Below, piece after piece: positions 3,099 through 33,543 of a DNA stretch of 35,675 nucleotides. The notes under the pieces are model-generated. The model was not told where the DNA came from. It made no database searches and was given only the letters and a program-made list of their open reading frames with translations. This DNA comes from a virus. Taxonomy: Duplodnaviria > Heunggongvirae > Uroviricota > Caudoviricetes. How positions within the stretch are numbered: position 1 is the stretch's first letter; each line of letters starts with the position of its first letter. The translations under genes and the position numbers were made by a program. The stretch lies in the IMG/VR virus record IMGVR_UViG_2563366934_000005; one strand, 5' to 3'.

Positions 3099-3577
3099 TA
3101 TCCCGCCCCCGTCATACCTGTGAATTTAGTCGCCATACTGCCAGCCTTACCGATGAGCGATTCCGCCTGTTTACCGATATCGCCATAAAGCGCGGCCAGT
3201 GATTCATCAACGCGGGTGAGCGACAGCGTAAAATCAATTTTCCGGGGTGTGCCGTCTGCAAAGAAAATACTCCCTGTTTCACTCACCTTGCTGATGACAT
3301 ACATGCCGTAAATCATGCCAGTGCCATCCAGCAACGGCCACGCCCGGCCTTCCTCTGCCATCAGCCTGAGCGTGGTCATCGTCAGCTTTCCGCCGGTCAG
3401 TTCGGGATAAAGCACACCGGCAAGCGTGATGTTTTCCTCGCCAACACCGAGAAACTGAAAGGCATCCCGTTTACCGATACGGGAATTTGACGGCCAGTGA
3501 TAATCTGATTCACGCTGCATGGTCTGGTGTGGCAGCGTCTGGCGCATAAAAACAAACATACCTAACGCGAGCATCAT
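3098..3577 (-). CDS. U: tail protein U
   Basis: 159 aa, the P2 gpU length, between T and D. Confidence 0.8.
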   Translation of the reverse strand: MMLALGMFVFMRQTLPHQTMQRESDYHWPSNSRIGKRDAFQFLGVGEENITLAGVLYPELTGGKLTMTTLRLMAEEGRAWPLLDGTGMIYGMYVISKVSETGSIFFADGTPRKIDFTLSLTRVDESLAALYGDIGKQAESLIGKAGSMATKFTGMTGAG

Positions 3578-3591
3578 TTTTCGTCACCTCC

Positions 3592-6039
3592 TTAACCGTC
3601 ATGCATCATGCTGGCACGGGCGCGCGCACGTTTATCCCGCTCGTATTTTTCGAGCGCATCCTGTAACTGGCGGTCAAGCTGTGTTCCCGGCGCAGAACCA
3701 CCCGTCAGGTTAATGTGATATTCGTTTTTACTCTGGTCTACATAAGAGCGGCCAGCCGGTGCCGTAACCGGCTGATAAGCCTGATAGCCTGCATAAGAGC
3801 TGGTCGCCGGAATATAACCAACGCTGCCATACGTGGCGGCTTGAGTTCTGGCGGCGGTCTGGTCAAGTGTGTCTGACTCTTTGTTGATAACACCGAGTTT
3901 TTCCAGTACCCAGTCAATACCGCTGCGCAGTTTGTTGAACGCATTAAGCGGCAGCATCAGCGCGTCAGCCAGTGCCTGCCCGAACATGACGCCCGTGTCA
4001 CGGCAACGGTTCAGGGTGTCCTGGGTGGCTTTAACCGGGGCAATCAGGTTTTTAAACCACTGCCACGCGGCCTGTAACTTTTCGCCCAGCCAGTCAAACA
4101 CCGGTTTCAGTGGCGTGAACAGCTCCCCCACCGGCGCAAATGCCGCTTTCAGCCCTTCAACCACACCGCCAAAGAATGCGCTGACAGGCTCCCAGTATTT
4201 ACGGATAAGTAACGCTCCGGCGACAATGGCGGCCACCACGGCCACTACCGGCCAGCTAATCGCCCCGATGGCCGTCATAACGGCACTGCCAACCGTCGTG
4301 AAAATTGCCCCCATTGCGCCTGCTGCAGCAATGATGGCATTGATGCCGGTGATAACCGGCCAGGCTACGAGGCCAATGGCACCGATGACACCAGTCAGCG
4401 CCAGTGCACCACCGACAATGATGCCGATGGTTGACGCCAGTGATTTGTTTTTCTGGATCCAGCCGTCGAGTTTTAACACATACTTTGTGGCCGTCTGCGT
4501 GAGATTACGCAGTGCGCCTTCCTGCTGGTCAAACAGGTCAGTCCCCACCGCCTCATAAGCGGACTGAAACTCCTTAAAGTCACCTCCGAGGTTGTCCTGC
4601 ATGATTTTAACCAGCTCTTCCGTTTTATCGTCCGAGGCTTTCAGCATGGCGGTCAGCTTATCCAGTTTTCCGCTTGCTGCCGCTGCCAGTAAAACGTTCG
4701 CTGATTTCAGGGCTTCCTCACCAAAAATGGTTTTAAGGTATTCCCCCTTCTGAGACGTTCCCAGCTTGTTTTTATCAAAGCTGGCCTGAATCTCTTTCAG
4801 AATGGTAAACAACGGACGCATATTTCCCTTTTTGTCCGAGGTTTTAACGCCAAGCTCTTTGAGTGCTTCCCATGCTTTCCCTGTCGGAGCCTGTAATCGG
4901 GTGACAACGGCACTGCTACCCGTACCCGCCATTGACCCCCTGATGTTATTGTCATGCAGCACACCTGTCATGGCTGCTGCCTGCTCAAGACTTACACCTG
5001 CCGTCTTCGCAACTGGGCCGAGGTAAGTCAGTGCATCACTGAGTCCCTGAAAATCAGCCGCCGACTTATTCATCGTTGCCGACAACACATCACCCACATG
5101 GCTGACATCATCATTTGACAGTTGAAAAGATGCTTTAGTCCCCAGCAACAGTTGCGCGTTTTCTTCCATCGACCGCTGATTCGCCAGTGCCATATTCAGC
5201 GTGACCGGCGTTGCCGCCTGAATAGCCGCAGCATCTCCACCCGCTTTCGCAATGATAATCTGCGCACCGGCTGCATCATCCGCCGAGGCGGCGGTGTTGT
5301 CGCCGAGCTGGCGCGCCTGCTTGCGTAGTGCGGTCATTTCGGCGGAGTCTTTTGCCACTCCGAGCACGGCCTGCAATTCTGAGTTTTTCTGCGCAAACTC
5401 ATAACCGGGCATCAGCAGCTTAACTCCGGCCATCGTTCCCGCCGCCGCAATCCCCACACCGGCAGCGCCCACTGAGGCCATATTTCCGGCCAGTTCCTTT
5501 CCGGCCTGATAACGCTGTTTTACTGCGTTAAGTTTTGCCTGTTGCGCACTGACACGCGCCAGCGCGTCACGCTGACGGTTAAGTTGTGCGGTGGTTTCAC
5601 TGATACGGTTTTTCAGTCCCTGCTCATCATGTGCAAGATTGCGGGTATTAATTCCCACAGCGGCCAGTTCCCGCTGCTGGCGTTTAACGGAATCCGTCAG
5701 GCGGTTATATTTCGCCTGTAAGTCCTCCGCCGCACGCTTTGCGGATTCCAGCACTTTCGCCTGAGCACGGGTCGGACGTTCGGTGTTTTTAAACTGTGTG
5801 GCAAGGGCTTCGGCTTCCTGCCGTGCCTTTTCAAGTGCATGACCAGTCACGGCAAGCTGTGCACTGGTCTTGCGGAATCCCTCAATACGGGATGCGTGAC
5901 CGTTCAGCTCGCGCAGTGATTTTTGTGTTTCCCGGATATCCCCCGACAGCGACTTACTCGCTGTACGGATGGATTTAAACGGGCGGGATGCCTGGTCAAC
6001 AGCCCTGAGCAATACCTGTAATTTTACATTGTTACTCAT
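3592..6039 (-). CDS. T: tail tape measure protein T
   Basis: 815 aa, the P2 gpT length. Coiled-coil-rich N-terminus and Gly/Ala-rich hydrophobic middle segment typical of tape measure proteins. Confidence 0.85.
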   Translation of the reverse strand: MSNNVKLQVLLRAVDQASRPFKSIRTASKSLSGDIRETQKSLRELNGHASRIEGFRKTSAQLAVTGHALEKARQEAEALATQFKNTERPTRAQAKVLESAKRAAEDLQAKYNRLTDSVKRQQRELAAVGINTRNLAHDEQGLKNRISETTAQLNRQRDALARVSAQQAKLNAVKQRYQAGKELAGNMASVGAAGVGIAAAGTMAGVKLLMPGYEFAQKNSELQAVLGVAKDSAEMTALRKQARQLGDNTAASADDAAGAQIIIAKAGGDAAAIQAATPVTLNMALANQRSMEENAQLLLGTKASFQLSNDDVSHVGDVLSATMNKSAADFQGLSDALTYLGPVAKTAGVSLEQAAAMTGVLHDNNIRGSMAGTGSSAVVTRLQAPTGKAWEALKELGVKTSDKKGNMRPLFTILKEIQASFDKNKLGTSQKGEYLKTIFGEEALKSANVLLAAAASGKLDKLTAMLKASDDKTEELVKIMQDNLGGDFKEFQSAYEAVGTDLFDQQEGALRNLTQTATKYVLKLDGWIQKNKSLASTIGIIVGGALALTGVIGAIGLVAWPVITGINAIIAAAGAMGAIFTTVGSAVMTAIGAISWPVVAVVAAIVAGALLIRKYWEPVSAFFGGVVEGLKAAFAPVGELFTPLKPVFDWLGEKLQAAWQWFKNLIAPVKATQDTLNRCRDTGVMFGQALADALMLPLNAFNKLRSGIDWVLEKLGVINKESDTLDQTAARTQAATYGSVGYIPATSSYAGYQAYQPVTAPAGRSYVDQSKNEYHINLTGGSAPGTQLDRQLQDALEKYERDKRARARASMMHDG

Positions 6040-8361: not shown

Positions 8362-8600
8362 GTCCTGATTTGTACTCACTCATTTTCCGACTGACAATTT
8401 ACATAGCCCAAACGCTATCAATTCTGACAGTCTGCTTTGAGCGAGGAGCAGACCTTCACGCTTTTCGCTGTTGAGTGACATGAATTATTAAAGAGCATTA
8501 TAAAACTTCACTTTTTCTAATTTCAATGCTTTATTAAAGTCAGCGACATTCAGGCTTATCAATTCAATATTAATATACCATCAGCATTATATAAGAGGTA

Positions 8601-9605
8601 TTATGCTAACCATTTTGGATGCTCTTTATAAACATTATTAAACCACTCGGTCATTTCAGGTGAGTTCGTATCCTTTATCCAAGTTAACTCAAAGTCATCT
8701 CCCATAGATGCAAATATTGATTTCAATTGAGTTATGATTAAACCATAGTAAAATCCAAAAGTTTTTTCTTCATCCTCATTGACTAATGATTCAATATGAC
8801 AACTGAGAATAAATCGAACTCGTGCCGCCGTTGAGGGATGTGTCGATTGAAAATGTTCATGGGGTGATAAGCCATCAGAAAGTTTGAAGTAGCACAGTAT
8901 TAATAGCAATGAAAATGCAATTCCGCCTTCCTTGCTGCTATAAAAATCAAGCAAGTTATTAAGATAAGATACCTTCTGATCAAATGCAGACTGTACATGT
9001 TTTTTTACAATATTAAGAGCAAAACCATCTGCAACTAATTCTCTTGCGTGGCTTGATATTAGTTCTGCGCTATTGATTTTTTTATGTCCTAAAACATCAT
9101 CAAAGATAGTGTCAATAGATTGCTTTTTTGCTCGGTCGCCATGTTTATTAATGAAATGGCCTACTTCGTGACTAACTATAAACAGCATTAGACAATCAAG
9201 AATAAACATAAATAAGTGTGATTCGGACTCACTTTCCTCTCTTGTCTCATTGTTAAACCCAACAAATGGATTAGTAACGAGATGCAAGTCATAAAAGTTT
9301 AAATTAGTACTTTTCCCTGTTATCATCCCTGACCGAAAAATCAAGTCAGATAACTTACATAGTCTATCAAATGTACCATAAGACATAAATATTAATTTTT
9401 CATCATAAATAATGCCGCATTGAAAATGTGAGTTGGTTGTAATGCAAAAATCCAGATCTAATTTTCGAACAGAGTCCATGTATTTACTAAAAAACGGCAG
9501 TACGAGACCATTATCTCTATCATTTATAAAATCATAGATAAGCCCCAATTGATTCTTTGAAAGAATTTCATTGATTTCATTAAGTTTTATTTCAAATCTA
9601 TCCAT
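8601..9605 (-). CDS. cargo protein with ImmA/IrrE-like (M78-type) HExxH zinc-metallopeptidase core; function unknown
   Basis: 334-aa ORF with AAGAGG ribosome-binding site 8 nt upstream. HEVGH at residues 146-150 (nt about 9156-9170) and ELVADGFAL at 189-197, fitting the HExxH ... ExxA(N/D)xFA pattern of COG2856 peptidases. Very AT-rich relative to the phage backbone. Confidence 0.55.
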   Translation of the reverse strand: MDRFEIKLNEINEILSKNQLGLIYDFINDRDNGLVLPFFSKYMDSVRKLDLDFCITTNSHFQCGIIYDEKLIFMSYGTFDRLCKLSDLIFRSGMITGKSTNLNFYDLHLVTNPFVGFNNETREESESESHLFMFILDCLMLFIVSHEVGHFINKHGDRAKKQSIDTIFDDVLGHKKINSAELISSHARELVADGFALNIVKKHVQSAFDQKVSYLNNLLDFYSSKEGGIAFSLLLILCYFKLSDGLSPHEHFQSTHPSTAARVRFILSCHIESLVNEDEEKTFGFYYGLIITQLKSIFASMGDDFELTWIKDTNSPEMTEWFNNVYKEHPKWLA

Positions 9606-9921
9606 AATTAGAACCTCTTAATTAAAATTTTAAATAATCCGCTTAAGTAGCTATGGAGATGTAATTCTAATACTCAATCCACTCATTCAATGGAAAGATT
9701 AGCATTACTTTAACCGCACTTTTGGACTTGACTTACTTCCCTTAAAGCTTCTGGGCACTATGTTAGTAATGTCCGCTCTTCGCACGCAGCGGACATTGCT
9801 AATAGCGGTCTATGTGAAACACGGGGAGTAGGTTAGTTTTAGCGTTAAACACAATAAGAGCACGATGAAGTATCAAAAAGGAAGCATTGCATAGATAATT
9901 TAGGCAAAAACAGAGCTTAAA

Positions 9922-10773
9922 TTACATATCATTCGCTATCAATTCGGTTGAGAGAACCCTTGGAATCAAGCTACTTTTTGAACCATACTTTATATACAGA
10001 AAGTCCATCATCTTTTCAACATCACTTTCATGCTCTACAATGACATATTTAATATCCTTATGTGAAAAGGGTAACCTGTCATCATCATAATATTCGTTAT
10101 ATTTTCTCTTGCCATCTTGAGTTGATATATTTTTCGAAGCAGCGATCACTGGTTTTCCAATTGATTTTTCTATATCTGGAACAAATCGCCACTCCCTCTC
10201 ATCTGCAAAAATATAGTTAGGTTTCTCCTGACCATTGCGTCGTTTCAAAGTTGCCTGGTAATTTTTCATATATCGCAAAGGATCTACAATTTTCTTGTAA
10301 CTAAGAATCGCCGAGTCATATTTCCGCTTTGCATTAGTTAATTGAGATGTTGTTCCTGAAGATTTTATTTCGTCCAAATGCTTTAATAACTTATTAACTT
10401 CTGCTTTTAAACGCCTAATCTCTAGATTATAATTATCAAAAACAGAAGAGTGCTTGGACATGTAAATTACTGGATTAAGTCCATTTTCGTTTGCCCAATC
10501 TTTTGATAATCCTATGCCATAATGGCCATAACTTTCAGTATGCTGGGTAAGCTGTGTTAGCCTGATATCACAAAATGAAACCATCGGTATACCGAAATTT
10601 CTATTCGTGCTCTGGCCTTGTATAAACTCTCTAGCGAAAGAAATTCGAAAATAACTTGAGTCAAGTATCTCAAATAAGGTATCTAACTTTTCAGTAAAAT
10701 GAAACAAGGTCGTTGGGTATAAGCTACGCGACATAATGATCATCCATAATATGATGTATAAACTAAGTATCAT
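9922..10773 (-). CDS. hypothetical cargo protein (283-aa ORF; start may be an internal Met)
   Basis: Long AT-rich ORF at the Z/fun position. Conspicuous LFHFT...L..IL N-terminal motif and a basic coiled-coil-like middle. No clear ribosome-binding site at the first ATG; alternative starts at Met11 and Met14. Confidence 0.5.
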   Translation of the reverse strand: MILSLYIILWMIIMSRSLYPTTLFHFTEKLDTLFEILDSSYFRISFAREFIQGQSTNRNFGIPMVSFCDIRLTQLTQHTESYGHYGIGLSKDWANENGLNPVIYMSKHSSVFDNYNLEIRRLKAEVNKLLKHLDEIKSSGTTSQLTNAKRKYDSAILSYKKIVDPLRYMKNYQATLKRRNGQEKPNYIFADEREWRFVPDIEKSIGKPVIAASKNISTQDGKRKYNEYYDDDRLPFSHKDIKYVIVEHESDVEKMMDFLYIKYGSKSSLIPRVLSTELIANDM

Positions 10774-10952
10774 AAATCAAGGTTATCAGTACTTACCATA
10801 CATCAGCAAGCGGAATTAGCGATAGCGGCCTGCTCCTCATTAATCAACACTAAGAGCTGTTAGCTACTTCCGCTCCTGGCACAGAGCGGACTGTCAGATT
10901 AGGCTTTACTCTGTGCCATAGATATGTAAGCTCACACCAGAGTTCATATAAC

Positions 10953-11483: not shown

Positions 11484-13732
11484 TTATACCTGCGCCACGT
11501 TATACCATGTCCCGTTAATGTATTTCTGAACCGGTCTGTAATATACACCACCAATGTTATCGGCAGAGTTTGAGCCGGTATCCTGAACAATAATGCCGGA
11601 ATATACACACCCGGACGGTGCCTGATGTGTCCATGTCATGCCATTGTTCGCAGGTTTGTATGTGGCAGCACCACCAAGCCGGATATCCCGGACATAGCGG
11701 GAATCAAAGTTACCGTAATCCGAGGGATTAACACGCCCCGTAATATTTATGGTTTTATTACTTTGAATGCTACCGGAGACAAAGCGCATAACATGGACGT
11801 TATTAGCATAAACATCCAGATTACCGTCGCCATTTTGTTTAAAGCCCGTGTCATTATCACCCAAAACAATCGAGTTACCGCCAAGAGCACTGGATGTACC
11901 GATGCCCAGTGCACCATTCAATTGACCTCCAGATAATGATAACGCCCCAACATCAGCAGCAGTCGGTTTAATGTGCGAACTGTAAATTACATATACAGTT
12001 CCATCTGTCAGGCCTGTTGGTTTATTCGCTGTATAAGTTGGTGATGTATGAATCGTTACGCTGGCGTTACTGGTATAATCCCACTGAATATTAACACCTG
12101 TGGCGTAATTACCTATTTCAACATAAACATCATAGGTATCACCGGATGTATTCACCCATGCAAAATTAGTAAATCCAACCGAGGTCCGTCGCCATAACGC
12201 ACCAGTAAGACCTTTTGGATTTCCATTTCCCGCACGAAGAACAAGTTCAGATATACCAGCCTGCATAGGGGAGTTAACATTATATCCGGCACCACCAATC
12301 AGACTTATGTAAACCACGGAACTGGCCTGTGACATGGTTACAGTTGCCAGCCTGAACCATCCTGTACCACCACTAAAAGACATGGTTGTTGAATTTGTTG
12401 CTCCAATATTGCGCAGGAATAATCTTTTATCAGGAATATCCGCGCCATTTTGATCTTTCTGAAGACGTTTTTCAGCATTGTCATAGGCAGACTTCACCGC
12501 TTTTGGTGTTGCGGCCAGCGTTTCCGAATCACTGTTGGTGGCGCTACTGAGCTGGACAAGACCTTTTCGCGCTGTGGTGGCGTCCTGTGCGGTATATTTC
12601 CCGTTAGCAAGGTCATACGCTGTCTTAACCGCCTTTGGCGTTGCAGCCAGCGTTTCAGAATCGCTGTTTGTGGCGCTACTGAGCTGGACAAGACCTTTTC
12701 GCGCTGTGGTGGCGTCCTGTGCGGTATATTTCCCGTTAGCAAGGTCATACGCTGTCTTAACCGCCTTTGGCGTTGCAGCCAGCGTTTCAGAATCGCTGTT
12801 TGTGGCGCTACTGAGCTGGACAAGACCTTTTCGCGCTGTGGTGGCATCCTGTGCGGTATATTTCCCGTTAGCGAGGTCATATGCTGCCTTTACCGCCTTT
12901 GGCGTTGCCGCAAGCGTTTCAGAATCACTGTTGGTGGCGCTACTGAGCTGGACAAGACCTTTTCGCGCTGTGGTGGCATCCTGTGCAGTGTATTTCCCGT
13001 TAGCAAGGTCATATGCTGCTTTTACCGCTTTTGGTGTTGCGGCGAGCGTTTCAGACGTGCTGTTGGTGGCACTACTGAGCTGGACAAGACCTTTTCGCGC
13101 TGTGGTAGCGTCCTGTGCGGTATATTTCCCGTTAGCCAGGTCATATCTTTCGGCGTTGCAGCCAGTGTTTCAGACGTGCTGTTGGTCGCACTGCTTAACT
13201 GAGTAAAACCTTTTGCGGTCAGCGAGGCGTCCGGGTGACGTCGTGACTGTTCATGTTCTGCAATTTTGTCATCAACGTAATCCTGCGTCGCCATCACCGT
13301 TGTGGTGTCAATGGTCAGCTCCACTGAGGTCACACTGCTGACGATGATGACCATACGGCAGGTCTGCGAACGCCCTGAGCCTTCGGCAAGAGCTGGCTTA
13401 TAACTTTCGGCCATGTTCGCCACGGCAATTAACGTTCCAGCATCATCGTACAGGCCAAGCTCACGCATCCAGAAACCGCCCACCTCCGGCGGAATAACCA
13501 GCTCTGCGATAATATAATTACTGTTTCGTTTGTCCTGGCTGATTTTGTTCAGCGCATGTCGCCAGACTTCGTGGATAAGCCCGGTCTGTCCGGCATCCGG
13601 GACAGGCAATTTACCACCGCCATCCCCGACGGCCATCGTGGTAATGTTGACCTTCCGCCCTCCCGGCGCGGTTGCCGCTGCCAGCTTTGCTGCACCGGCA
13701 GTGGTGATAACGGTTCTGAATTTTGTGCTCAT
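11484..13732 (-). pseudogene. H: tail fibre protein H, disrupted by a frameshift within its internal repeats
   Basis: The conserved H N-terminus (ORF 13022-13732) runs through the first repeat in frame (..SSATNSTSETLAATPK), then continues out of frame. The in-frame repeats and receptor-binding C-terminus (ORF 11484-12497, open upstream to about 13145) are in another frame. About 13 nt encoding AVKxA is missing at about 13146-13147 relative to the other repeat units. Confidence 0.6.
12497..13215 (-). repeat. tandem 132-bp coding repeats (about 5 units of a 44-aa tail-fibre motif)
   Basis: Near-identical units every 132 bp, starting at about 12541, 12673, 12805, 12937 and 13069. Each encodes AVKAAYDLANGKYTAQDATTARKGLVQLSSATNSDSETLAATPK. 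Confidence 0.85.
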
Positions 13733-15178: not shown

Positions 15179-15526
15179 TCAACTCACAGGGATGGTTAAC
15201 GAAAGTGGCTGGCCGGTGTCGTTGTGCTGGCCGGTTAACGTGACCGTCATTCGCCCGTCAAAACTGCGCTCAGTGGTGACGGATGACAGGGTGACGCGGG
15301 GTTCCCATTTCAGCACCGCCATGTAACAGGCGACCTTAATCTGCAACTCAAGCGCCGGGGTCTGCGGCTGGTCAATCATTGATGCCAGCAACGAGCCGTA
15401 ATCACGACGCATCACCCGTGAGCCGACCGGTGTGCGCAGGATATCGCCGATACTCTGGCTGATATGCTCAAGGTCAGTGACAGTCAGGCCATCACTGCGA
15501 TTCATTCCGAGATAACGCGCTGTCAT
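15179..15526 (-). CDS. W: baseplate protein W
   Basis: 115 aa, the P2 gpW length; start overlaps the V stop. Confidence 0.8.
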   Translation of the reverse strand: MTARYLGMNRSDGLTVTDLEHISQSIGDILRTPVGSRVMRRDYGSLLASMIDQPQTPALELQIKVACYMAVLKWEPRVTLSSVTTERSFDGRMTVTLTGQHNDTGQPLSLTIPVS

Positions 15527-16158
15527 AAAGGACTCCCGGTTGTGCCGCCGCTGTCGCCGGGGTGTTTATGGGTATGCAGTACCTTACCGTTTGATGAGAG
15601 TTCACCGCCGGTGTGTTCAATGTTGCCGCGCATCGTCCCGCCCTTCTGCACTTCCAGCGTGCCGGTAATCAGCCTGTTGGTGCAGACCACCTCCGGGGTG
15701 TCCAGGGTGACGCGCGTTGATGCTTTCACCATGACCACCGGCACCGTGGCAGTAACAGAATCAGAAGCCGTCACGCTGGCCGTTTTAATTCCGCTTACCG
15801 TGAGTGCACTGGTTTCGGGTTCATATTCAATCACCGCCCCGTCAGGGAAACGGATATGCAGGGCATCCGCCGACACAGACGGCGAGGGGTTATCGCCGGA
15901 ATAAATCCCCGGCAGAACGAACGCCGTGTCGAGTTCACCGCCCACGGCCAGAATCAGCACCTGTTCTCCCACGGAAGGTGCCCACCATGTGCGCGAACGT
16001 CCTGCGCGATGGGTCAGCCACTGAAGCCAGTCGGTGCACATGCCGCCGGTCTGCACGCGGCAGCGACCGGCGTTAAGGTCGGTTTCGACGATAATGCCGG
16101 TGCGAATCATGTTGCGCAGTGCGCGCGCGAGTTCCTGAATATTTGCGAGAGTGTTCAT
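15523..16158 (-). CDS. V: baseplate spike protein V
   Basis: 211 aa from the ATG at 16158 (MNTLANIQELARALRNM...), the P2 gpV length. The track ORF starts 6 codons upstream at a TTG. Confidence 0.8.
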   Translation of the reverse strand: MNTLANIQELARALRNMIRTGIIVETDLNAGRCRVQTGGMCTDWLQWLTHRAGRSRTWWAPSVGEQVLILAVGGELDTAFVLPGIYSGDNPSPSVSADALHIRFPDGAVIEYEPETSALTVSGIKTASVTASDSVTATVPVVMVKASTRVTLDTPEVVCTNRLITGTLEVQKGGTMRGNIEHTGGELSSNGKVLHTHKHPGDSGGTTGSPL

Positions 16159-16241
16159 GCATGTGAGATTGCACAATATATAAAAGTTATGCTATCTGGA
16201 TTCATTTGTAGAACTACCAGACAACATTCAAGGAGAGCGTA

Positions 16242-17027
16242 ATGGTCAGCTATAATGTGACTAATGTGTGGGGGCTAATCGTTTTTTTCCTTTGTAGCTT
16301 TGCAGTATTAGCATTTTTTAGCTTTGGTAAAAGTAACCTTATGAGGCTTATTGCACATTATTTCAATTTTGGATATTCAGACAAAAAATTAAAAAGACTT
16401 GACCGCGAGTGGCGCGACATTCAACTATTTAAAATAATTAACGGAATCAATGTATCAGGCATTGAAAATGTGAGAATGATACAGCAGGGACTGATTGATG
16501 GAAAACTAAAAACATCGTATTTTTTCCTTACTCGCATCTGGGGTGACATAACAAAACCACCACACATAATTAAAACAATAATTGTAATTCTGGCCAGTAT
16601 TTTTTACATTCTCCTCGCATGTTACATACACAACGAACAATCCGTTATAGTAAGGGATGCCATAGGCATACCATATAAAAACATGATGTACTATGTTTAT
16701 AGTGACAAAGTTCTTTTATCCTTCAAAAATAAAGCAGTTGAATTTAATAAAACTTATAGCCTTGCCGATTGCAAGAGACTGCAAAACGTATTTATAAAAG
16801 ACACACTTCCTGAGATCGCCTGCAATAAGCTCTTACAGCTAAACGAGGAGGACTCCGAATGGTTAAGCCAGGAGATTAAAGATAATAACAGTCACAAAAA
16901 AGCATTATTAATACTATCCCTCGTCTATTTCACTTCAGGTCTGGTTATATTCCTGTCATATACAAAATTCTTTTACGCCAATAAGAAGGTTTTAGAATAC
17001 AAAGCATCAAATAAAAATCACTCATAA
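16242..17027 (+). CDS. AT-rich membrane protein at the P2 orf30 position (3 predicted transmembrane segments), function unknown
   Basis: 261-aa ORF with AGGAG ribosome-binding site. Encoded opposite to the flanking V and S late genes. Hydrophobic segments at about residues 10-28, 112-131 and 222-241. Confidence 0.6.
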   Translation: MVSYNVTNVWGLIVFFLCSFAVLAFFSFGKSNLMRLIAHYFNFGYSDKKLKRLDREWRDIQLFKIINGINVSGIENVRMIQQGLIDGKLKTSYFFLTRIWGDITKPPHIIKTIIVILASIFYILLACYIHNEQSVIVRDAIGIPYKNMMYYVYSDKVLLSFKNKAVEFNKTYSLADCKRLQNVFIKDTLPEIACNKLLQLNEEDSEWLSQEIKDNNSHKKALLILSLVYFTSGLVIFLSYTKFFYANKKVLEYKASNKNHS

Positions 17028-17033
17028 ACCTCT

Positions 17034-17068
17034 AAACATTGAGCGACCAGCATGGCCGCTCAATGTTT
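17034..17068. terminator. bidirectional hairpin between the orf30-position gene and S
   Basis: 12-bp perfect stem AAACATTGAGCG / CGCTCAATGTTT with an 11-nt loop, sitting between convergent stop codons (17027 and 17099). Confidence 0.5.
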
Positions 17069-17098
17069 AATTGCGCATCAGCCTCTGCCTGGATAAAA

Positions 17099-17551
17099 CT
17101 AACGCTCAAGGTGAGCCAGGATAATCTCTTCAATCATCTGCACATCCTCACCGGTAAAGCCGAGCAGAGGACGCGCCGGATAATCAATTTTCTTACCGTC
17201 TTTCCGGGTTTCTTCCGACAGACCGAACTGATGCACACTGGCGATTTTCGGCGACTTCCCGCCGTAAAATTCCATTGATGCCTGTTCCGGGCTGGCGCGG
17301 ATATGCAAAAAACGACTGGTGATAAGTTTCGCAAACATTTTTCGCTTAACACGACCGGTCTTTTTTCTGGCGCTCTGCTGCTGGCGTGGCGCGTAGGGTG
17401 TGCCGTCCGGGGCTTTCTGTGCCATCACCCGACGCTGCTGACTCTGCCGCAGACGCTTCGCCAGCTCTGCACTCAGCCGCCGACGCCCTGACGGTGACAG
17501 CGACTCAATAAGTCCGGTCAGCCGGTCTTCAAAACGCTTAAACTCATTCAT
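17099..17551 (-). CDS. S: tail completion protein S
   Basis: 150 aa, the P2 gpS length. Confidence 0.8.
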   Translation of the reverse strand: MNEFKRFEDRLTGLIESLSPSGRRRLSAELAKRLRQSQQRRVMAQKAPDGTPYAPRQQQSARKKTGRVKRKMFAKLITSRFLHIRASPEQASMEFYGGKSPKIASVHQFGLSEETRKDGKKIDYPARPLLGFTGEDVQMIEEIILAHLER

Positions 17552-23472: not shown

Positions 23473-25245
23473 ATGACCATCACCACAGACACCACTCTTT
23501 TACACGACCCGCGTCGTCAGGCGGCGCTGCTGTACTGGCAGGGGTTTTCCGTGCCGCAGATTGCCGCCATGTTGCAGATGAAACGCCCGACGGTGCAGAG
23601 CTGGAAACAGCGCGACGGCTGGGACAGCGTTGCCCCCATCAGCCGTGTCGAAATGAGTCTGGAAGCGCGGCTGACCCAGCTCATCATCAAACCGCAGAAA
23701 ACCGGCGGTGACTTCAAGGAAATTGACCTGCTGGGACGCCAGATTGAACGACTGGCACGGGTAAACCGTTACAGTCAGACCGGCAACGAGGCAGACCTTA
23801 ATCCGAACGTCGCTAACCGCAACAAAGGCGGGCGGCGCAAACCGAAAAAGAATTTTTTCAGTGACGAGGCCATCGAAAAGCTGGAGCAGATTTTCTTTGA
23901 GCAGTCTTTCGAATATCAGCTGCACTGGTATCGCGCCGGGCTTGAGCACCGCATCCGCGATATCCTGAAATCCCGCCAGATTGGCGCGACGTTTTATTTT
24001 TCCCGCGAGGCGCTGCTGCGCGCCCTGAAAACCGGCCATAACCAGATTTTTCTGTCGGCCAGTAAAACGCAGGCGTATGTGTTCCGCGAATACATCATCG
24101 CCTTTGCCCGTCTGGTTGACGTTGACCTGACCGGTGACCCGATTGTCCTGGGCAATAACGGTGCAAAACTGATTTTTCTCGGCACCAACTCCAACACCGC
24201 ACAGAGCCATAACGGCGACCTGTACGTCGATGAGATTTTCTGGATCCCGAATTTTCAGGTACTGCGTAAGGTGGCATCAGGTATGGCCTCACAGAGTCAC
24301 CTGCGTTCGACCTATTTCTCCACCCCGTCCACGCTGGCGCACGACGCCTACCCGTTCTGGTCGGGTGAACTGTATAACCGGGGACGCGCCAGCGCCGCCG
24401 AACGCGTGGAAATCGACGTCAGTCATAACGCCCTTGCCGGTGGGCTTCTCTGTGCGGACGGTCAGTGGCGACAGATTGTCACCATTGAGGACGCCCTGAA
24501 AGGTGGCTGCACGCTGTTCGACATTGAGCAGCTCAAACGCGAAAACAGCGCCGACGATTTTAAAAACCTGTTCATGTGTGAATTTGTTGACGACAAGGCG
24601 TCGGTGTTCCCGTTCGAGGAGCTGCAACGCTGCATGGTCGACACGCTGGAAGAATGGGAAGACTATGCACCCTTTGCCGCCAATCCGTTCGGCTCCCGCC
24701 CGGTATGGATTGGTTACGACCCGTCACACCGTGGCGACAGCGCCGGATGCGTGGTGCTGGCACCGCCGGTGGTGGCCGGTGGCAAATTCAGAATACTTGA
24801 GCGTCACCAGTGGAAAGGCATGGACTTTGCCACCCAGGCTGAATCCATCCGCAAACTCACCGAAAAATATAACGTCGAATACATCGGTATTGATGCCACC
24901 GGCCTCGGTGTCGGCGTGTTCCAGCTCGTGCGCTCGTTCTATCCCGCCGCGCGCGACATCCGCTACACGCCGGAAATGAAAACCGCAATGGTGCTCAAGG
25001 CAAAAGACGTTATCCGCCGTGGCTGTCTGGAATATGACGTCAGCGCCACCGACATCACCAGCTCGTTTATGGCTATCCGCAAGACCATGACCAGCAGTGG
25101 ACGCAGCGCCACCTATGAGGCCAGCCGCAGCGAGGAAGCCAGCCACGCCGACCTCGCCTGGGCGACCATGCACGCCCTGTTAAATGAGCCACTCACCGCC
25201 GGTATCAGCACCCCGCTGACATCCACCATTCTGGAGTTTTACTGA
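23473..25245 (+). CDS. P: terminase large (ATPase) subunit P
   Basis: 590 aa from the ATG at 23473 (MTITTDTTLLHD...), the P2 gpP length. GAGG ribosome-binding site; TGATG overlap with Q. Confidence 0.85.
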   Translation: MTITTDTTLLHDPRRQAALLYWQGFSVPQIAAMLQMKRPTVQSWKQRDGWDSVAPISRVEMSLEARLTQLIIKPQKTGGDFKEIDLLGRQIERLARVNRYSQTGNEADLNPNVANRNKGGRRKPKKNFFSDEAIEKLEQIFFEQSFEYQLHWYRAGLEHRIRDILKSRQIGATFYFSREALLRALKTGHNQIFLSASKTQAYVFREYIIAFARLVDVDLTGDPIVLGNNGAKLIFLGTNSNTAQSHNGDLYVDEIFWIPNFQVLRKVASGMASQSHLRSTYFSTPSTLAHDAYPFWSGELYNRGRASAAERVEIDVSHNALAGGLLCADGQWRQIVTIEDALKGGCTLFDIEQLKRENSADDFKNLFMCEFVDDKASVFPFEELQRCMVDTLEEWEDYAPFAANPFGSRPVWIGYDPSHRGDSAGCVVLAPPVVAGGKFRILERHQWKGMDFATQAESIRKLTEKYNVEYIGIDATGLGVGVFQLVRSFYPAARDIRYTPEMKTAMVLKAKDVIRRGCLEYDVSATDITSSFMAIRKTMTSSGRSATYEASRSEEASHADLAWATMHALLNEPLTAGISTPLTSTILEFY

Positions 25246-26448: not shown

Positions 26449-26467
26449 GTGCTTTCCCCGCCTCGCC
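26449..26467. other. cos site (19-nt cohesive-end sequence)
   Basis: GTGCTTTCCCCGCCTCGCC is the reverse complement of GGCGAGGCGGGGAAAGCAC, which I recall as the P2 cohesive end. It lies between Q and the old/tin-position cargo, as in P2. Confidence 0.7.
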
Positions 26468-26782
26468 CGCCCGCTTCATGGGGCGGTTTTAATGCAGTTG
26501 CATGATGAAACTGAAATCACATCAGAACTGACCGAAACTGACAAAAAGAATAGTATCTGACACATGCAAAAACACGCACTTAATATACGCCTATCTATAG
26601 CTCCTACAGGATTGTCAAAAAACGACCAACTCGTCATAGCGTAAACACATTTGGCTCAACGAACACTTACGTTATATGCCTCTTGAACATATCAAAGTCT
26701 TAAGGTAGATCTTTACCACTAAGTGGCTATATTAAGCTGCTTTTTTACATACAATAAAAGCTTTATCGTATGAGGCATAAAA

Positions 26783-28999
26783 ATGGAACTTAGATTAAAA
26801 AATGTTACCAGTTATAAGAAAGACGCCTTCACAATACTGAATCTTGAAAAAAGAGTAAACATACTATACGGCCAAAATGGTTGTGGCAAATCTACCATTT
26901 CAAATTATTTCTACGACTCTACACACACAGATTATAACGAGTGTGAATGTACCCTTCTTGACAATTACAAACCTCTTGTTTACAACACTAAATTTATTGA
27001 AGATAATTTCTACAATGCACAGGAACAAAAAGGTGTTTTTACATTAAGTAAAGAAAATGCAGATATTGAAAAACAATTAATTGAAAAAGAAGCAATTAAA
27101 CAGCAACTCACAGAGCAATATAGACAAAAAAAAGGAGTGTTATTGAAATTAGAAGCAGAAATGGAAAAAAAAGAAAATGAATACATCGAATCGATCTGGA
27201 AAAAAACAGAACCAATCAGAAACTCTGTACTAAAAACCTTAATGAAAGGTAAAGTTGGCTATAAAAGACCTTTTTTTGAGATGATAAAATCATCCTCACC
27301 AATCACCTTTATTAATTTAAATGATATAGCAAAAGAATACTCTATACTATTAGAAAATAGAAACAATGAAACCGCATTAATAACTCCTTTACATCCATAT
27401 ATCCCATCAATTGATGATGTAAATACATTAGCAACACCTATAATAGATACAAGCAATAGCTATTTATCAGAAACCATTAATAAACTTCATAATCTTGACT
27501 GGGTAAAAAAAGGTAAAGAACATTATTTAGACGGTTCTACATGTCCGTTTTGTCAGGAAAAAACTATTAGTCACGAATTTTTAAATGCCCTTAAATCAAT
27601 ATTTGACGAAAGTTATTCAAAGAAAGTAAAACAGCTCTCAGATATAAAGTCAGTTTATGAGAAAAATACTATATATCATTTTAACGAAATACAAAACAAT
27701 ATATCATCATGTGCACTAATCAATGAGAAAGATAAAGAGAACATTATTTCCAATATTAAAATATTGCAAAACATTGCAGAAAAAAATTTAATAAACATTA
27801 TTGATAAGATCAACAATCCATCAACATGCGTTACATTAGAAATTGATAAAGAACTAGAAAATCATGTTCAGGAAAGCATAGGCGCTGTTAACAAGAAAAT
27901 AAGAGACATAAATGATAAGGTTAAAAAACTCAAAGAGTATGAGAATAAAATCGGAAAACAAGTTTGGGGGGCTCTCCATGCTTTTTGCAGCGATGATTTA
28001 GAGAATTTATCCAAACACAAAGAAAAATTCTTTGATATCAAAAAGAAAGTTCATGATGAATTAAATAATATTGAGCAACAAGGAAAAGAAAATAATCTCA
28101 CAATAAAAGCATTGCGAGATAAAATATCTAACATTGATTCTACGATAGACTCAATAAACACCCATTTAAAAAATCTAGGGATCTCTGGTTTTTGTATTGA
28201 AAAACATGCAGAAAGAAAAGATATGTACATTATATCTCGACCAGGGCATACAAAAAACCAAAATGTTTATAGATCTCTTAGCGAAGGTGAAAAAACACTA
28301 ATAACGTTTCTTTATTTTTTAGAGTGCTGTAAAGGTAAAACCGATAAAAATGATACCGATAGCAGGGATATTTTTATTGTTATTGACGATCCAATATCTA
28401 GTCTATCGCAAAACTATGTCTACGACATCGCATCAATTATTCATCACCACATTATAAAAAATGAATTAACAAAGAAGGTATTAATCCTTACTCACAATCT
28501 TTATTTCTTTCATGAACTTATTAAGCTATCTCCTAAAAGCAGAGAAGACAAACTATTTAAGAAAAACTATTATCTAGGTAGAGTAACGAAAAATGATTTT
28601 AGTATAATTACTGAAATACAAAAAAACAGCATACAGAATGAATATCAATCTTTGTGGCAAATATTAAAAGATGCAAAAGATGGCAAAGCAAACAAAATCA
28701 TAATACCGAATATTATGAGAAACATACTAGAATATTATTTTGCATTTGTTCATAGAACAGATGCTCTACAAGATGAATTAACAAAGTTGGCACGCGACGA
28801 TAGCAACAGTGATTTCAAAGCATTCTACAGATACATTAACAGAGGTTCTCACTCTGATGCGGTAAATATTACTGATATGGGCGACATAGACCCAGATAAA
28901 TACCTAAAACAATTGAGAACAATATTTTCAGCTACTGGTGACGAAATGCATTATTTAAAAATGATGGACGAACTAGAAGAGGAGAACGTTACCGCTTAG
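26783..28999 (+). CDS. RloC/PrrC-like ABC-type ATPase with CxxC zinc-hook-like insert and C-terminal HEPN-like nuclease motif (putative anticodon nuclease / defence protein)
   Basis: 738-aa AT-rich ORF with GAGG ribosome-binding site. Walker A GQNGCGKST (aa 30-38), signature-like LSEGEK (499-504), Walker B IFIVIDDP (531-538) and H-loop LILTHN. A roughly 400-aa Lys/Glu-rich insert carries CPFC (254-257). C-terminal RNILE (646-650) and RYINRGSH (683-690) fit R-x3-E and R-x6-H. Confidence 0.55.
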   Translation: MELRLKNVTSYKKDAFTILNLEKRVNILYGQNGCGKSTISNYFYDSTHTDYNECECTLLDNYKPLVYNTKFIEDNFYNAQEQKGVFTLSKENADIEKQLIEKEAIKQQLTEQYRQKKGVLLKLEAEMEKKENEYIESIWKKTEPIRNSVLKTLMKGKVGYKRPFFEMIKSSSPITFINLNDIAKEYSILLENRNNETALITPLHPYIPSIDDVNTLATPIIDTSNSYLSETINKLHNLDWVKKGKEHYLDGSTCPFCQEKTISHEFLNALKSIFDESYSKKVKQLSDIKSVYEKNTIYHFNEIQNNISSCALINEKDKENIISNIKILQNIAEKNLINIIDKINNPSTCVTLEIDKELENHVQESIGAVNKKIRDINDKVKKLKEYENKIGKQVWGALHAFCSDDLENLSKHKEKFFDIKKKVHDELNNIEQQGKENNLTIKALRDKISNIDSTIDSINTHLKNLGISGFCIEKHAERKDMYIISRPGHTKNQNVYRSLSEGEKTLITFLYFLECCKGKTDKNDTDSRDIFIVIDDPISSLSQNYVYDIASIIHHHIIKNELTKKVLILTHNLYFFHELIKLSPKSREDKLFKKNYYLGRVTKNDFSIITEIQKNSIQNEYQSLWQILKDAKDGKANKIIIPNIMRNILEYYFAFVHRTDALQDELTKLARDDSNSDFKAFYRYINRGSHSDAVNITDMGDIDPDKYLKQLRTIFSATGDEMHYLKMMDELEEENVTA

Positions 29000-29026
29000 G
29001 CCGCATATTATCGTTTTGGGTAAGAA

Positions 29027-29046
29027 CGACGGTGCTTACGCACCGT
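29027..29046 (+). terminator. weak hairpin downstream of the 738-aa gene
   Basis: GACGGTGC-TTAC-GCACCGTC stem-loop 28 nt after the stop, but no U-tract. Confidence 0.25.
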
Positions 29047-29222
29047 CTCCCAACGCCCAAAGCGGTAGCGGTTGTACTGGCGTACATTCACTAGCTTTAA
29101 CATGAGGCAATCTCCATGCCAGCACTATTGTTGCCAATAGCAGCCTTTATACCCTTTGTACAAAGCTAATACCAAGAGTAATGCAAAGTAGATGTCCCAA
29201 GCGGTAACGGGGCTATTCTATG

Positions 29223-31514
29223 TCAAACACAGAAAAAATCAAAGCGCCCTATGAATCCCCCCCAACCATCAGCGACCGGATACGTGAATTTTTTCCCGTC
29301 ATAATTTACGGTCGCTCCACGCGCCAGCGCCTCAAGCTCCCATCGCTGCGGCATGATACCGTTCTGAGCAAGGTCAACGCGGATACGGGTGATTTGCAAT
29401 CGTTCAGACCTGGTCAGTCTGGCAGATGGTGCAATTTCATGCGGTTTTAACGGGCTTCCGTTTCTTTGCTGACGGTTTGGCGTTCTCAGGTCGTATTTTA
29501 ATGCGCCCCTGAGCGCCCTCACGACCTCCGGTTCATTCCATTCAATAACACCGTCATCAACCAGATTAAGCACTGCTGCGGCGTGCTCAGAAGGTGTGGG
29601 AGCCGGTAACGAAGTATCACCACCGGTGAGCTTTCCACAGTTATTGACAGGACTCCGAGGCGCGGCGATGCCGCTTTTTAAAGTCAAAGGCTCAACGACC
29701 GGAACTTTCGGCACAATGCGCCAGTCCGTCGTTCTGGTGATATGAATATGACGCGCGCCGAGATGCGGCGCGTAAATGCCGACCACTCTCTCGACTTCTT
29801 CCTCGTACTCGTTAACGTCATCCGACGGGCTACGGGCGACTCTGACAGTCTGGCAATCACGCGGAACATTTGCCCCACCCTGCGCGCTGATATACAACGC
29901 AAAATCACCACTGTCTGCGGCGGCACGTGCAGCCTCAACGCGTTCGTCAAACTCATCAGCAATGCTGACGCCGCGAGGCAATTTGCGTAGTTCACGGTAA
30001 GCCCCCATTGTCGGCAGGCCAACCGTTTTAAATTGCGGGATGCGCCACGTTGACGCCCATGCGGTAACAGCCGCAGCAGTATCTTTCAGCGGCCTGCCGG
30101 TATCGTTATCGAGCTGACCATCCAGTGCATAGCCATCGATGTTTTTTGAGATGTATTTCGCGATATACCCCGCAGCACCGCCCCGGTTAAGATGTTTTGC
30201 CTGAAAACGGTTTCGCGCGGCTCCTCTTTCGTCGCCATCCTCTTTGAGCGCATAGCGACGCATGATTTCGATAATCTGGTTACGCTGGCGTGGATTACAA
30301 AAAAGCATCATATGCCAGTGCGGCGTTCCGTCGTGGTGTGGCTCGACGACTCGCAAACCGTAGACCTGTAAATCATTATCCTTGAATGCCGTGCGCATCA
30401 GGCTCCAGATACGACAGAGATAACGCTGCGCATCCTTTGGATTAAATGCCTCATCGTTCCAGCCGTGATTAAGCTGAACGGTTTTACTTTCGCCTTTTCT
30501 GACCTGACGAGTCGGGTGATACTTTGACGGCGCGGTCAGCGTGATAAACATCCCCACATCACCCTCTGCGGCGGCGTAACGCTCAATACCGGCAATGGTG
30601 TTCATCAGCTCCATCCGGCGAATTTCAGGATTAGAAATACTGCCCATCACCTTACTGATAAGGTCGATGCGCTCGCCGGTTTCCCTGTTTTCAAGGTCAC
30701 ACGATTTAAGAAATTCCAGATTTGCCTGGCGGCGCGCACGCACATCACGAATGGCGTGTTTACTGGCATAAGGAGAACGGTCTTTATTGACCTCCCCGAC
30801 AGCTATCAGTAACGCTTCATGCCAGCGCATACGCTGGCCTTTAAGCTGATGAGTCCACCACTCATCGTTAAACAGACGGGCAATGGCAGAATATGCCTGC
30901 CTCGTGGTCATCTGCCCTTTACGGTATTTTTTCCAGTAGAGAGGGGAAATATTGAAAGCACGTGCAGCGCCAGCAACATGACCATAGAGGTGAGCCTGCG
31001 CCTCATCCGTAAACAGCGATTCTTTTTCGCCATGCGCATCCACCCAGGCATCGCTGAGTTCCTCATACATCATGAAAAGCTGCGATGAGATACGGGCAGC
31101 AAACTTTTTCAGCTCCTTGTCATTCATTCCCGGCAGGCGCGCATAGTGGTCACGCTCTGCCAGAAACAGTAACGACGCGTCGGTGTTCATTTCATGGCGC
31201 TGATTCACACGCTCAATGCGCGGCCATAAACGACGCTGAAAAGTGGATGTGAGGAAATAAAACCCGTGTACCGGGCTTTTATTGCGCCGGATGTAGTCAT
31301 AGCGTGAAGTAAACAGCGAGCGCAAAAAGTAAGGCAGGCGGTTAATCGTGGATAAAACACCTTGCACCTGACGCATCTCGTCACGTGTAAGGGGTCTTTC
31401 GCGCCCGACGGCCTCGCGTGGCGCGTTCCATGCATAAGCACCGGTAAACGCCTTACCGGTGCCTGCAGCAAATGCTGAAGGAGGGACAAAACGCCCGGAG
31501 GCTTTAACGGCCAT
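29223..31514 (-). CDS. A: replication initiation protein A (rolling-circle nickase)
   Basis: About 763 aa from the ATG at 31514 (MAVKASGRFVPPSAF...), close to P2 gpA (about 761 aa). The track ORF is extended 14 codons upstream to a TTG. Confidence 0.85.
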   Translation of the reverse strand: MAVKASGRFVPPSAFAAGTGKAFTGAYAWNAPREAVGRERPLTRDEMRQVQGVLSTINRLPYFLRSLFTSRYDYIRRNKSPVHGFYFLTSTFQRRLWPRIERVNQRHEMNTDASLLFLAERDHYARLPGMNDKELKKFAARISSQLFMMYEELSDAWVDAHGEKESLFTDEAQAHLYGHVAGAARAFNISPLYWKKYRKGQMTTRQAYSAIARLFNDEWWTHQLKGQRMRWHEALLIAVGEVNKDRSPYASKHAIRDVRARRQANLEFLKSCDLENRETGERIDLISKVMGSISNPEIRRMELMNTIAGIERYAAAEGDVGMFITLTAPSKYHPTRQVRKGESKTVQLNHGWNDEAFNPKDAQRYLCRIWSLMRTAFKDNDLQVYGLRVVEPHHDGTPHWHMMLFCNPRQRNQIIEIMRRYALKEDGDERGAARNRFQAKHLNRGGAAGYIAKYISKNIDGYALDGQLDNDTGRPLKDTAAAVTAWASTWRIPQFKTVGLPTMGAYRELRKLPRGVSIADEFDERVEAARAAADSGDFALYISAQGGANVPRDCQTVRVARSPSDDVNEYEEEVERVVGIYAPHLGARHIHITRTTDWRIVPKVPVVEPLTLKSGIAAPRSPVNNCGKLTGGDTSLPAPTPSEHAAAVLNLVDDGVIEWNEPEVVRALRGALKYDLRTPNRQQRNGSPLKPHEIAPSARLTRSERLQITRIRVDLAQNGIMPQRWELEALARGATVNYDGKKFTYPVADGWGGFIGRFDFFCV

Positions 31515-33281: not shown

Positions 33282-33543
33282 CGAGACCTAACCACATCAA
33301 CCAGCCGTCACGAATCTCTTTAGGACGGCTTTCATAAGCCAGTTTTAGTCCGTTATTCCATGCCGGAAGGTATACCCAATATTCACCAGCACGCCCCGAT
33401 ACTGACTGAGGGTCAGTAATCTCAATAACTGGTAATTTCCCTTTCTCAATCATGCCCCTTACAGCTCTTGGAGTTTTACCAATGAGTTTTGCAAACTCCT
33501 GATAAGGCACGGCATCAGTCACGCTTACAAGCTGTCTATTCAT
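33268..33543 (-). CDS. cox: Cox excisionase / early-lytic regulator
   Basis: 91 aa, the P2 Cox length; first gene of the early operon, divergent from C. Confidence 0.75.
   Translation of the reverse strand: MNRQLVSVTDAVPYQEFAKLIGKTPRAVRGMIEKGKLPVIEITDPQSVSGRAGEYWVYLPAWNNGLKLAYESRPKEIRDGWLMWLGLGEPR

Follow-up and report, generated by a model that had tools for sequence, protein, structure and literature searches.

Bacteriophage P2 carries non-essential cargo genes in variable slots of its genome, and anti-phage phenotypes have been demonstrated for the products of fun(Z), old, and tin, with Fun(Z) proven to act against phage T5. The orf30 gene is also cargo of this phage, found between the tail genes V and S, but unlike these three it has no demonstrated phenotype; the P2 GenBank record lists Orf30 as "nonessential" and of unknown function. 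In phage HK97, gp15 is reported, in work by Cumby et al. from 2012, to block DNA entry. Types of the P22 protein SieA are less than 30% identical yet share a conserved cytoplasmic motif and the same transmembrane (TM) pattern of three predicted segments (PMC10883804). Published accounts of P2-like phages also give Orf30 as "unknown" and name the orf30 site, together with the TO region and Z/fun, as one of three sites of horizontal transfer (PMC3091744, PMC6823313). Neither the gene nor its position nor its foreign, AT-rich character is new, all three having been documented in P2 for decades. Here, we analyze the copy of orf30 at positions 16242 to 17027 of a 35,675-nucleotide stretch of viral DNA (IMG/VR record IMGVR_UViG_2563366934_000005, Caudoviricetes), hereafter called the window. 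Comparative evidence presents orf30 as an accessory gene in a variable slot that separates the O and V late operons, read in the direction opposite to both, and we tentatively propose a role in anti-phage defense at the cell envelope.

Results

The window gene and the limits of its cassette

The open reading frame (ORF) at 16242 to 17027 is almost certainly orf30 of P2 itself. A 1.5-kb region of the window shares 99.1% DNA identity with P2 (AF063097), the encoded protein is 99.6% identical to P2 Orf30 (AAD03281) over 261/261 residues with one amino acid (aa) differing, and phrog_2407 ("unknown function") is matched end to end (positions 1 to 261/261, E = 5.5e-149). An earlier note on this DNA had described a 261-aa AT-rich ORF between V and S on the opposite strand, at the site and in the orientation of the P2 orf30 moron. 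The ORF listing, the base composition, and the Pfam matches of the neighboring genes bear this out, and the gene turns out to be orf30 rather than merely a gene at its position. The locus is organized as follows.

16242..17027, plus strand: orf30 coding sequence, 261 aa, ATG start and TAA stop (ORF listing, AAD03281 identity, phrog_2407)
15523..16158, minus strand: left flank, gpV (baseplate spike), with which the V late operon begins (Pfam Phage_base_V, Phage_spike, and Apex; P2 annotation)
17099..17551, minus strand: right flank, gpS (tail completion protein), with which the O late operon ends (Pfam Phage_tail_S, 4.9e-44; P2 annotation)
16159..17098, no strand: swappable module, the whole V-S intergenic block of 940 bp (alignments with the empty-slot relatives L007 and L008)

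In both L007 and L008, S is 99% identical to the window S and the S-V gap measures only 69 bp. Homology between the window and these empty-slot relatives runs precisely up to the V start codon on one side and the S stop codon on the other, and the exchangeable unit is therefore the entire 940-bp block, including the P_V promoter region and the terminator. The GC content of orf30 is 0.34, against 0.56 to 0.60 in the flanks (0.57 in the comparison used for the moron assignment), and its GC content at third codon positions (GC3) is 0.36, against 0.67 in V and 0.59 in S. A moron is expected to show such a deviant base composition along with patchy presence and clean boundaries in close relatives, and both are found here: orf30 is present in some close relatives and absent from others in which S is 99% identical and the slot is empty. 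The frame is not a chance ORF, since 261 stop-free codons would arise with p ~1e-9 (about 7% of random codons are stops at the same base composition, by our own arithmetic), six collinear alleles show no indels and a ratio of nonsynonymous to synonymous substitution rates (dN/dS) below 1, and 461/464 copies in E. coli genomes are full length.

The slot between V and S in relatives of P2

Species-representative genomes were scanned with gpS as the anchor, because the divergent family alignment (A2) offered no conserved peptide stretch for a locus scan. Both S and V could be located in 74 P2-like prophages from many Enterobacterales genera. About 15 of these slots were empty (65 to 124 bp, with flank-like GC content), and about 59 held AT-rich inserts of 0.6 to 3.2 kb with a GC content of 0.30 to 0.48. 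ORFs of at least 70 aa, taken from 60 slots, fell into 68 unrelated clusters in both orientations. Recognizable cargo included PARIS AriA, Septu PtuA, AbiLi, OLD-like, mad3, GmrSD, SIR2, caspase, HigB toxins, an AbiEii-type ATPase, and RelA/SpoT proteins, as well as membrane families such as 8xMP and an ion-channel domain. Because known defense components are among this cargo, the S-V slot is a defense-rich hotspot in relatives of P2. The Orf30 family was the commonest single cargo, in 7/60 slots. The other two cargo sites of the window prophage carry an AbiGi homologue and the PADLOC candidate system PDC-S06.

At one locus (L009:5034-6134, Escherichia sp. MOD1-EC7003) with a 99% identical S, orf30 is replaced by an antisense gene for a 366-aa RelA/SpoT (toxSAS-like) protein that matches PADLOC PDC-S33 and Pfam RelA_SpoT (1.8e-21). 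This amounts to a natural exchange of the cassette on one phage backbone.

The old/tin region of the window prophage is replaced at 26467 to 29253 by a single gene (ORF 26783 to 28999, plus strand) for a 738-aa AAA_13 ATPase, which matches PDC-S06 with an E value of 1e-254 and has a PrrC-like C-terminal part. The Z/fun region is replaced at 8452 to 10869 by two ORFs (9922 to 10773 and 8601 to 9605, both on the minus strand), encoding the AbiGi homologue (PADLOC, 1.9e-41; Pfam AbiGi, 7e-31) and a 334-aa protein with a weak M48-peptidase match. Both lie in the late-operon sense, unlike fun(Z).

Predicted architecture and domain-resolved selection

Three TM segments had been predicted for the protein, and a 19-residue Kyte-Doolittle scan recovers three hydrophobic segments at residues ~8 to 28, 108 to 130, and 220 to 241, with maxima of 2.25 to 2.59. 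The resulting plan, including features from AlphaFold2 (AF2) models, is given below.

16263..16325, plus strand: TM1, aa 8 to 28; N terminus predicted periplasmic; least constrained part, dN/dS ~1.2 (hydropathy, charge)
16326..16562, plus strand: loop 1, aa 29 to 107; predicted cytoplasmic helical domain, most conserved region of the family
16563..16631, plus strand: TM2, aa 108 to 130 (hydropathy; AF2 helix 109 to 134)
16632..16898, plus strand: loop 2, aa 131 to 219; predicted periplasmic four-strand beta-sheet plus helices (AF2 strands 141 to 173, helices 174 to 200)
16899..17024, plus strand: TM3, aa 220 to 241, and lysine-rich cytoplasmic tail, aa 242 to 261; K254 nearly invariant

The predicted topology is N-out/C-in, with loop 1 cytoplasmic and loop 2 periplasmic, on the grounds of the family-wide net charges (+5 in loop 1, -0.4 in loop 2, and +2.2 in the tail) and the positive-inside rule. 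Loop 1 carries the motif D.QLF[KR]..NG[IV]NV...DA, with G29, Q61, G68, D76, and G87 invariant or nearly so, and its mean pairwise identity across the family is 34%, compared with 14 to 24% in other parts. Loop 2 contains a cysteine pair, C194 in 28/28 members and C177 in 25/28, within a domain that also holds the motif AC.YL; a periplasmic disulfide between the two is plausible. The TM segments are the least conserved parts (14 to 20% identity) and have no conserved polar residues. Two AlphaFold models agree on secondary structure, with predicted local distance difference test (pLDDT) scores of 72 and 77 and predicted template modeling (pTM) scores of 0.50 and 0.56. A reading of TM1 as a lipoprotein signal or cleavable signal peptide was set aside: there is no lipobox, C18 is unconserved, the N-region is uncharged, and the hydrophobic core spans 21 residues.

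Across the six alleles, dN/dS is 0.46 overall for orf30 (range, 0.26 to 0.55), compared with ~0.1 to 0.2 for V and ~0 to 0.06 for S. Of the soluble parts, the cytoplasmic loop has 0.34 and the periplasmic domain 0.26; TM2 and TM3 plus tail reach 0.63 to 0.70, and TM1 has the value of ~1.2 listed above. The two regulatory spacers are 94 to 100% conserved among these alleles, against 89 to 98% for the ORF. Across genera, median identity is 29% for the Orf30 family, 60% for S, and 69% for V. The more the neighboring S genes have diverged, the more Orf30 tends to have done so as well (Mantel rho 0.51, p ~0.0015). In one pair of prophages, S is 91% and V 95% identical and the Orf30-like proteins only 46%, which indicates either allele replacement or strong diversification. 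Because dN/dS is below 1, indels are absent, copies are intact, and members persist in decayed remnants, orf30 is a functional, fast-evolving gene under purifying selection, with the constraint residing in the two soluble domains and not in the membrane helices.

A diverged family linked to DUF6216

A word-indexed search returned only five clusters at 39% identity or more; the number rose to 44, about 25 of them full length and 16 to 31% identical to the window protein, when 1.84 billion representatives were searched exhaustively with a profile. Family members have a common plan, namely, a variable TM1, a basic helical loop of ~80 aa, TM2, a Cys-pair domain of ~90 aa, TM3, and a lysine-rich tail. 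With identity falling to 16 to 25%, the family is diverging fast. A Sodalis member from the V-S slot (P0030) matches Pfam DUF6216 (PF19723) with 28.9 bits, above the gathering threshold of 27.3, over positions 10 to 265/270; four more members match weakly, below threshold, and the window protein itself shows no match at E <= 0.1. Orf30 may thus be a remote branch of the uncharacterized DUF6216, linked to it through family members only. No literature on DUF6216 was found, and the link names the family without explaining its function.

Searches of Pfam, NCBIfam, and PADLOC with the window protein gave nothing beyond phrog_2407. An NCBIfam match to "RP671a" was noise (E = 0.018, its 15 bits falling far short of the cutoff, 120), and a profile search of PDB sequences returned only a spurious NDH subunit match (E = 0.038). 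PADLOC models run across 28 family members produced one marginal match, to HamA (0.0067). The UniRef name of a Rahnella member (P0059) is [quoted passage not shown] (SLATT), and this label could not be reproduced: P0059 and nine others had no NCBIfam match at E <= 1, no SLATT Pfam model matched any of the 28 members at E <= 0.01, and the Pfam field of P0059 is empty. Other membrane proteins among the slot cargo were rejected as remote Orf30 relatives, as hidden Markov model scores drop from 231 bits to noise. As queries, P0030, P0038, and P0021 drew no match in viral and metagenome scans.

Eighteen family genes could be located, and 15/18 occupy V-S slots in P2-like prophages; every one of these runs antisense to S and V and has a GC content of 0.30 to 0.38. 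The 15 are the window copy, four from Serratia, seven from the species scan, one from Sodalis, and two at locus L099. Each of two viral contigs that are nearly identical has a member on the margin of a P2-type tail cluster, ~0.9 kb beyond R and again antisense and AT-rich, and one Enterobacter copy sits at a contig end where its context is uninformative; all 17/17 members with readable context are therefore antisense and AT-rich. Among complete E. coli genomes, orf30 is present in 464/5426 (~9%), from many hosts, and it fills 482/1803 (~27%) of the P2-type slots. At least nine of the P2-like phage records listed have an empty slot, and some relatives of this kind are phage isolates.

Two loci, L005 and L099, retain members in decayed prophage remnants. 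In the Serratia rubidaea remnant (L005:7486-10021), only ogr, V, the Orf30-like gene, and a 49-aa S fragment are left, so that the cargo has outlived most of the phage. The V-S slot at L099:5102-6759 holds two tandem paralogues of 256 and 252 aa that are 25.5% identical (GC content, 0.30 and 0.33), and in this remnant J is truncated beside chromosomal chemoreceptor genes. In the two IMG/VR contigs mentioned above (L096:243-1568 and 3495-4277), the V-S slot contains another antisense ORF, of 441 aa, and the Orf30-family gene beyond R lies beside a GNAT-like gene, at the end of the tail cluster; the two contigs may represent a tail-only (tailocin-like) or truncated element.

Regulatory signals in the spacers

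The 83-bp spacer between the V and orf30 start codons and the interval between orf30 and S contain the following signals.

16231..16235, plus strand: Shine-Dalgarno (SD) sequence AGGAG, 6 nt before the ATG (sequence)
16200..16227, minus strand: Ogr/delta activator site of the late promoter P_V, inside the orf30 5' leader (P2 annotation mapped onto the window, and sequence)
16169..16198, plus strand: weak and speculative candidate sigma-70 promoter, TTGCAC-N18-TATCTG, whose spacer ends in TGc; read from the sequence, and the sole candidate
17034..17068, no strand: hairpin with a 12-bp perfect stem and A- and T-runs on its sides; arms 17034 to 17045 and 17057 to 17068

The earlier note had credited orf30 with an AGGAG ribosome-binding site of its own, which is indeed there, and AAGGAG-like SD sequences precede about 9 to 10 of the 12 family members located for this comparison. 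The perfect 12-bp stem on the side of S, also described in that note, stands as well, although it is not specific to orf30. The P2 record annotates this hairpin as a putative rho-independent terminator that closes the late O operon behind S, on the minus strand (9397 to 9433, corresponding to window positions 17033 to 17069). It is not conserved throughout the family, being present in 4 to 5 of 12 members and absent from 7 to 8 of 12; among the six alleles it is 94 to 100% conserved. Its 11-nt loop adds three further pairs, and the minimum free energy is -22 kcal/mol on the plus strand and -30 on the minus strand. Since A- and T-runs flank the stem, it can serve both convergent transcripts and is plausibly best read as a shared, bidirectional terminator that also ends the orf30 transcript. 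An RNA element in or around the ORF was rejected, as Rfam gave only sub-threshold matches, located on the hairpin.

The Ogr site is centered at about -55 from the V transcription start at 16158, a geometry that suits V and not orf30. The same geometry would place an Ogr-activated orf30 start near 16269, within the ORF (own arithmetic), and Ogr-dependent late expression of orf30 was rejected on these grounds. Any orf30 promoter would have to overlap the RNA polymerase footprint at P_V. The V-operon transcription start is taken from the P2 record, which sets it at the first base of the V start codon (window 16158, P2 10308) and so implies a leaderless V mRNA; this position may be a measured value or an annotation convention.

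The surrounding prophage

The window contains a complete P2-type prophage at ~1507 to 35200, collinear with P2 and differing from it in three regions: Z/fun, old/tin, and the immunity repressor. The ends of P2 homology (~1507 and ~35200) coincide with P2 attP (24355 to 24382) and mark the prophage junctions, beyond which host DNA continues for ~1.5 kb at the left end and 0.5 kb at the right. No P2 match exists for the immunity repressor (C) region at 33521 to 33835, and the flanking int and cox genes match at 96.7 to 98%; because of the unmatched repressor region, this prophage should differ from P2 in immunity specificity. In the tail-fiber gene H, a 132-bp (44-codon) tandem repeat occurs in 5.1 copies with 93% identity at 12480 to 13146, and its unit is single-copy in P2 (P2 coordinates 13252 to 13461). 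Distal H and gene G are divergent from P2, at 78% identity or without a match.

Discussion

A possible role in defense at the envelope

The reading we put forward, to which we give somewhat less than an even chance, is that Orf30 is a prophage-expressed inner-membrane factor for exclusion or defense at the envelope, which would block DNA delivery by heterologous phages. In this model, a weak promoter, located in the 83-bp spacer and facing away from the Ogr-dependent P_V, would drive orf30 in the lysogen, so that orf30 would be on while P_V is silent and would be occluded late in infection; the bidirectional hairpin would shield it from convergent transcription of the O operon. Orf30 would then interfere with a step of phage DNA delivery in the periplasm or at the inner membrane, in the manner of SieA, Imm, and gp15, its soluble loops making specific contacts and its TM helices only anchoring it. 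Exclusion by protein contacts is favored over a pore because the TM helices are fast-evolving and poorly conserved and the soluble loops are constrained. Rapid divergence, allele swapping, and the occasional tandem paralogues could reflect shifting target specificity. Support for a defensive role comes from location, as defense components occupy both the slot and the other two cargo sites of the prophage, and from the analogy of its niche with those of fun(Z) and P22 sieA; the antisense position relative to the late operons and the misplaced Ogr geometry argue that orf30 is not a late gene. Extended to the family, the proposal would make Orf30 and its DUF6216-related relatives an unrecognized group of single-protein, inner-membrane anti-phage factors, acting by exclusion or abortively, that reside in the S-V slot of P2-like phages of the Enterobacterales and change targets by allele swapping and tandem duplication; we judge this broader version possible, though again not the probable outcome.

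Several observations weigh against a defensive role at the envelope. The slot also carries non-defense cargo (a methylase, ORF6N, and DUF proteins), and an argument from location is weak for a single gene. No PADLOC-DB 2.0 model matched the window protein at E <= 1, no significant fold was found for the Orf30 models in PDB or BFVD, and homology to P22 SieA and HK97 gp15 was rejected, with hhalign probabilities of 0.3% (family profile A2) and 1%, respectively. The structure models are of moderate confidence, and the topology derives from hydropathy and the positive-inside rule alone. A consensus scan for sigma-70 promoters upstream of orf30 gave no match, its best candidates scoring no better than shuffled sequence, and expression in the lysogen is assumed for want of a convincing promoter of this kind. 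AT-rich DNA of this kind is often silenced by H-NS. The classical P2 work of Bertani and Six is said to have shown that P2 lysogens still take up superinfecting P2 DNA, which would make P2 itself an unlikely target of exclusion. Literature searches by gene name, accessions, and phrog and Pfam identifiers found no functional study of Orf30, nor any published phenotype, experiment, or data on its expression from the repressed prophage.

Other functions can be envisaged for the same protein. We regard it as rather unlikely that Orf30 is a membrane effector of abortive infection that oligomerizes, senses phage, and depolarizes or permeabilizes the cell, causing death before progeny arise, comparable to RexB or the TM effectors of CBASS/SLATT type. 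A single-gene membrane protein in a defense hotspot would suit such a role, the slot holds membrane families elsewhere (8xMP, the ion-channel domain), and the Z/fun slot of the window prophage carries AbiGi; but the SLATT label of P0059 was not reproduced, no PADLOC effector was matched, the P2 slot contains no partner sensor gene, and TM helices that are the fastest-evolving part of the protein and lack conserved polar residues would be unusual for a pore. Lysogenic conversion without an anti-phage effect, in which Orf30 would alter envelope physiology (stress, bile, colicin or tailocin tolerance, nutrient uptake, or the cell surface), is in our view unlikely. Prophage morons often act in this way, as do bor and lom of lambda, and retention in decayed remnants, the wide occurrence in E. 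coli from many hosts, and the presence of a conserved domain at either face of the membrane, a trait of signaling or adaptor proteins, all agree with it. Yet the recognizable slot cargo consists mostly of defense components, and fast divergence, allele swapping, and divergent tandem paralogues suit an arms race better. A large survey (PMC13586616) also describes P2-like elements as not known to bring along accessory genes of other classes, for instance for virulence or resistance.

The tight link to P2-type tail modules, with 15/18 members between V and S and two more at the edge of a tail cluster, could instead point to an accessory of the lytic cycle that affects lysis timing, blocks re-adsorption or injection into infected cells, or helps the tail or baseplate at the membrane. 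The correlation of its divergence with that of S and the higher conservation of the P_V-bearing spacer compared with the ORF fit this as well, but the correlation is expected from physical linkage alone, the gene is antisense to both late operons with the Ogr site misplaced for it, it is annotated as nonessential, most close relatives lack it and are nevertheless viable phages, and it is kept where tail genes have decayed; we consider this improbable. Least credible, and to our mind very improbable, is that orf30 is silent or selfish cargo, a horizontally acquired AT-rich ORF silenced by H-NS and hitch-hiking in the slot. Its GC content, the failure to detect a strong promoter, the absence of a known domain, and some 30 years without a reported phenotype would agree with silence. 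Against this stand purifying selection with a domain structure (0.26 to 0.34 in the loops), a frame intact in the six alleles and in nearly all genome copies, and an architecture, motifs, and Cys pair kept across genera down to 16 to 20% identity, along with a conserved SD sequence.

What the present analysis adds to the P2 record is the DUF6216 link, the exact cassette boundaries, a constant antisense orientation with strong but not absolute fidelity to the slot, domain-resolved selection, tandem divergent paralogues, and known defense components in the S-V slot of other genera. The presence of orf30 in ~9% of complete E. coli genomes makes its function matter, and the question is now easily tested, given a 940-bp cassette, relatives with empty or swapped slots on near-identical backbones, a topology model, the Cys pair, and divergent alleles. 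Should envelope defense prove correct, the slot would be the third proven defense site of P2, beside old/tin and fun(Z), and a function would be found both for a DUF-type family and for a classic P2 gene that has been "unknown" since the 1990s.

Comparison with known systems

Closest to the window gene is P2 orf30 (AAD03281), which is the same gene, with the same S-V position, orientation, terminator, and P_V activator site. Within P2, the niche of fun(Z) resembles that of orf30, in that a late-operon terminator is followed by an antisense gene and this by the next promoter under Ogr activation. Orf30 shares no sequence similarity with Fun(Z), Old, or Tin, and the annotations of these three give no sign of small three-TM membrane proteins. 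Pfam DUF6216, with its 270-position model, is about as long as Orf30, and the likeness to the tetraspan fold of the Claudin/TARP/LHFPL type is one of resemblance only. HK97 gp15 is also a moron among tail genes with a membrane-protein product (annotation), but it has 62 aa, is in the sense orientation, and lies directly upstream of the tape-measure gene. SieA has 162 to 164 aa, compared with 261 in Orf30, lacks the ~90-aa periplasmic beta domain, and, unlike Orf30, has a demonstrated function. Like orf30, P22 sieA is antisense; it adjoins genes of the membrane-penetration apparatus, the ejection-protein genes that SieA targets (P22 annotation, PMC10883804), and Orf30 is predicted, from hydropathy and the positive-inside rule, to be an inner-membrane protein with about three TM segments, as is typical of SieA. 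In architecture and gene placement, SieA is a close parallel to Orf30.

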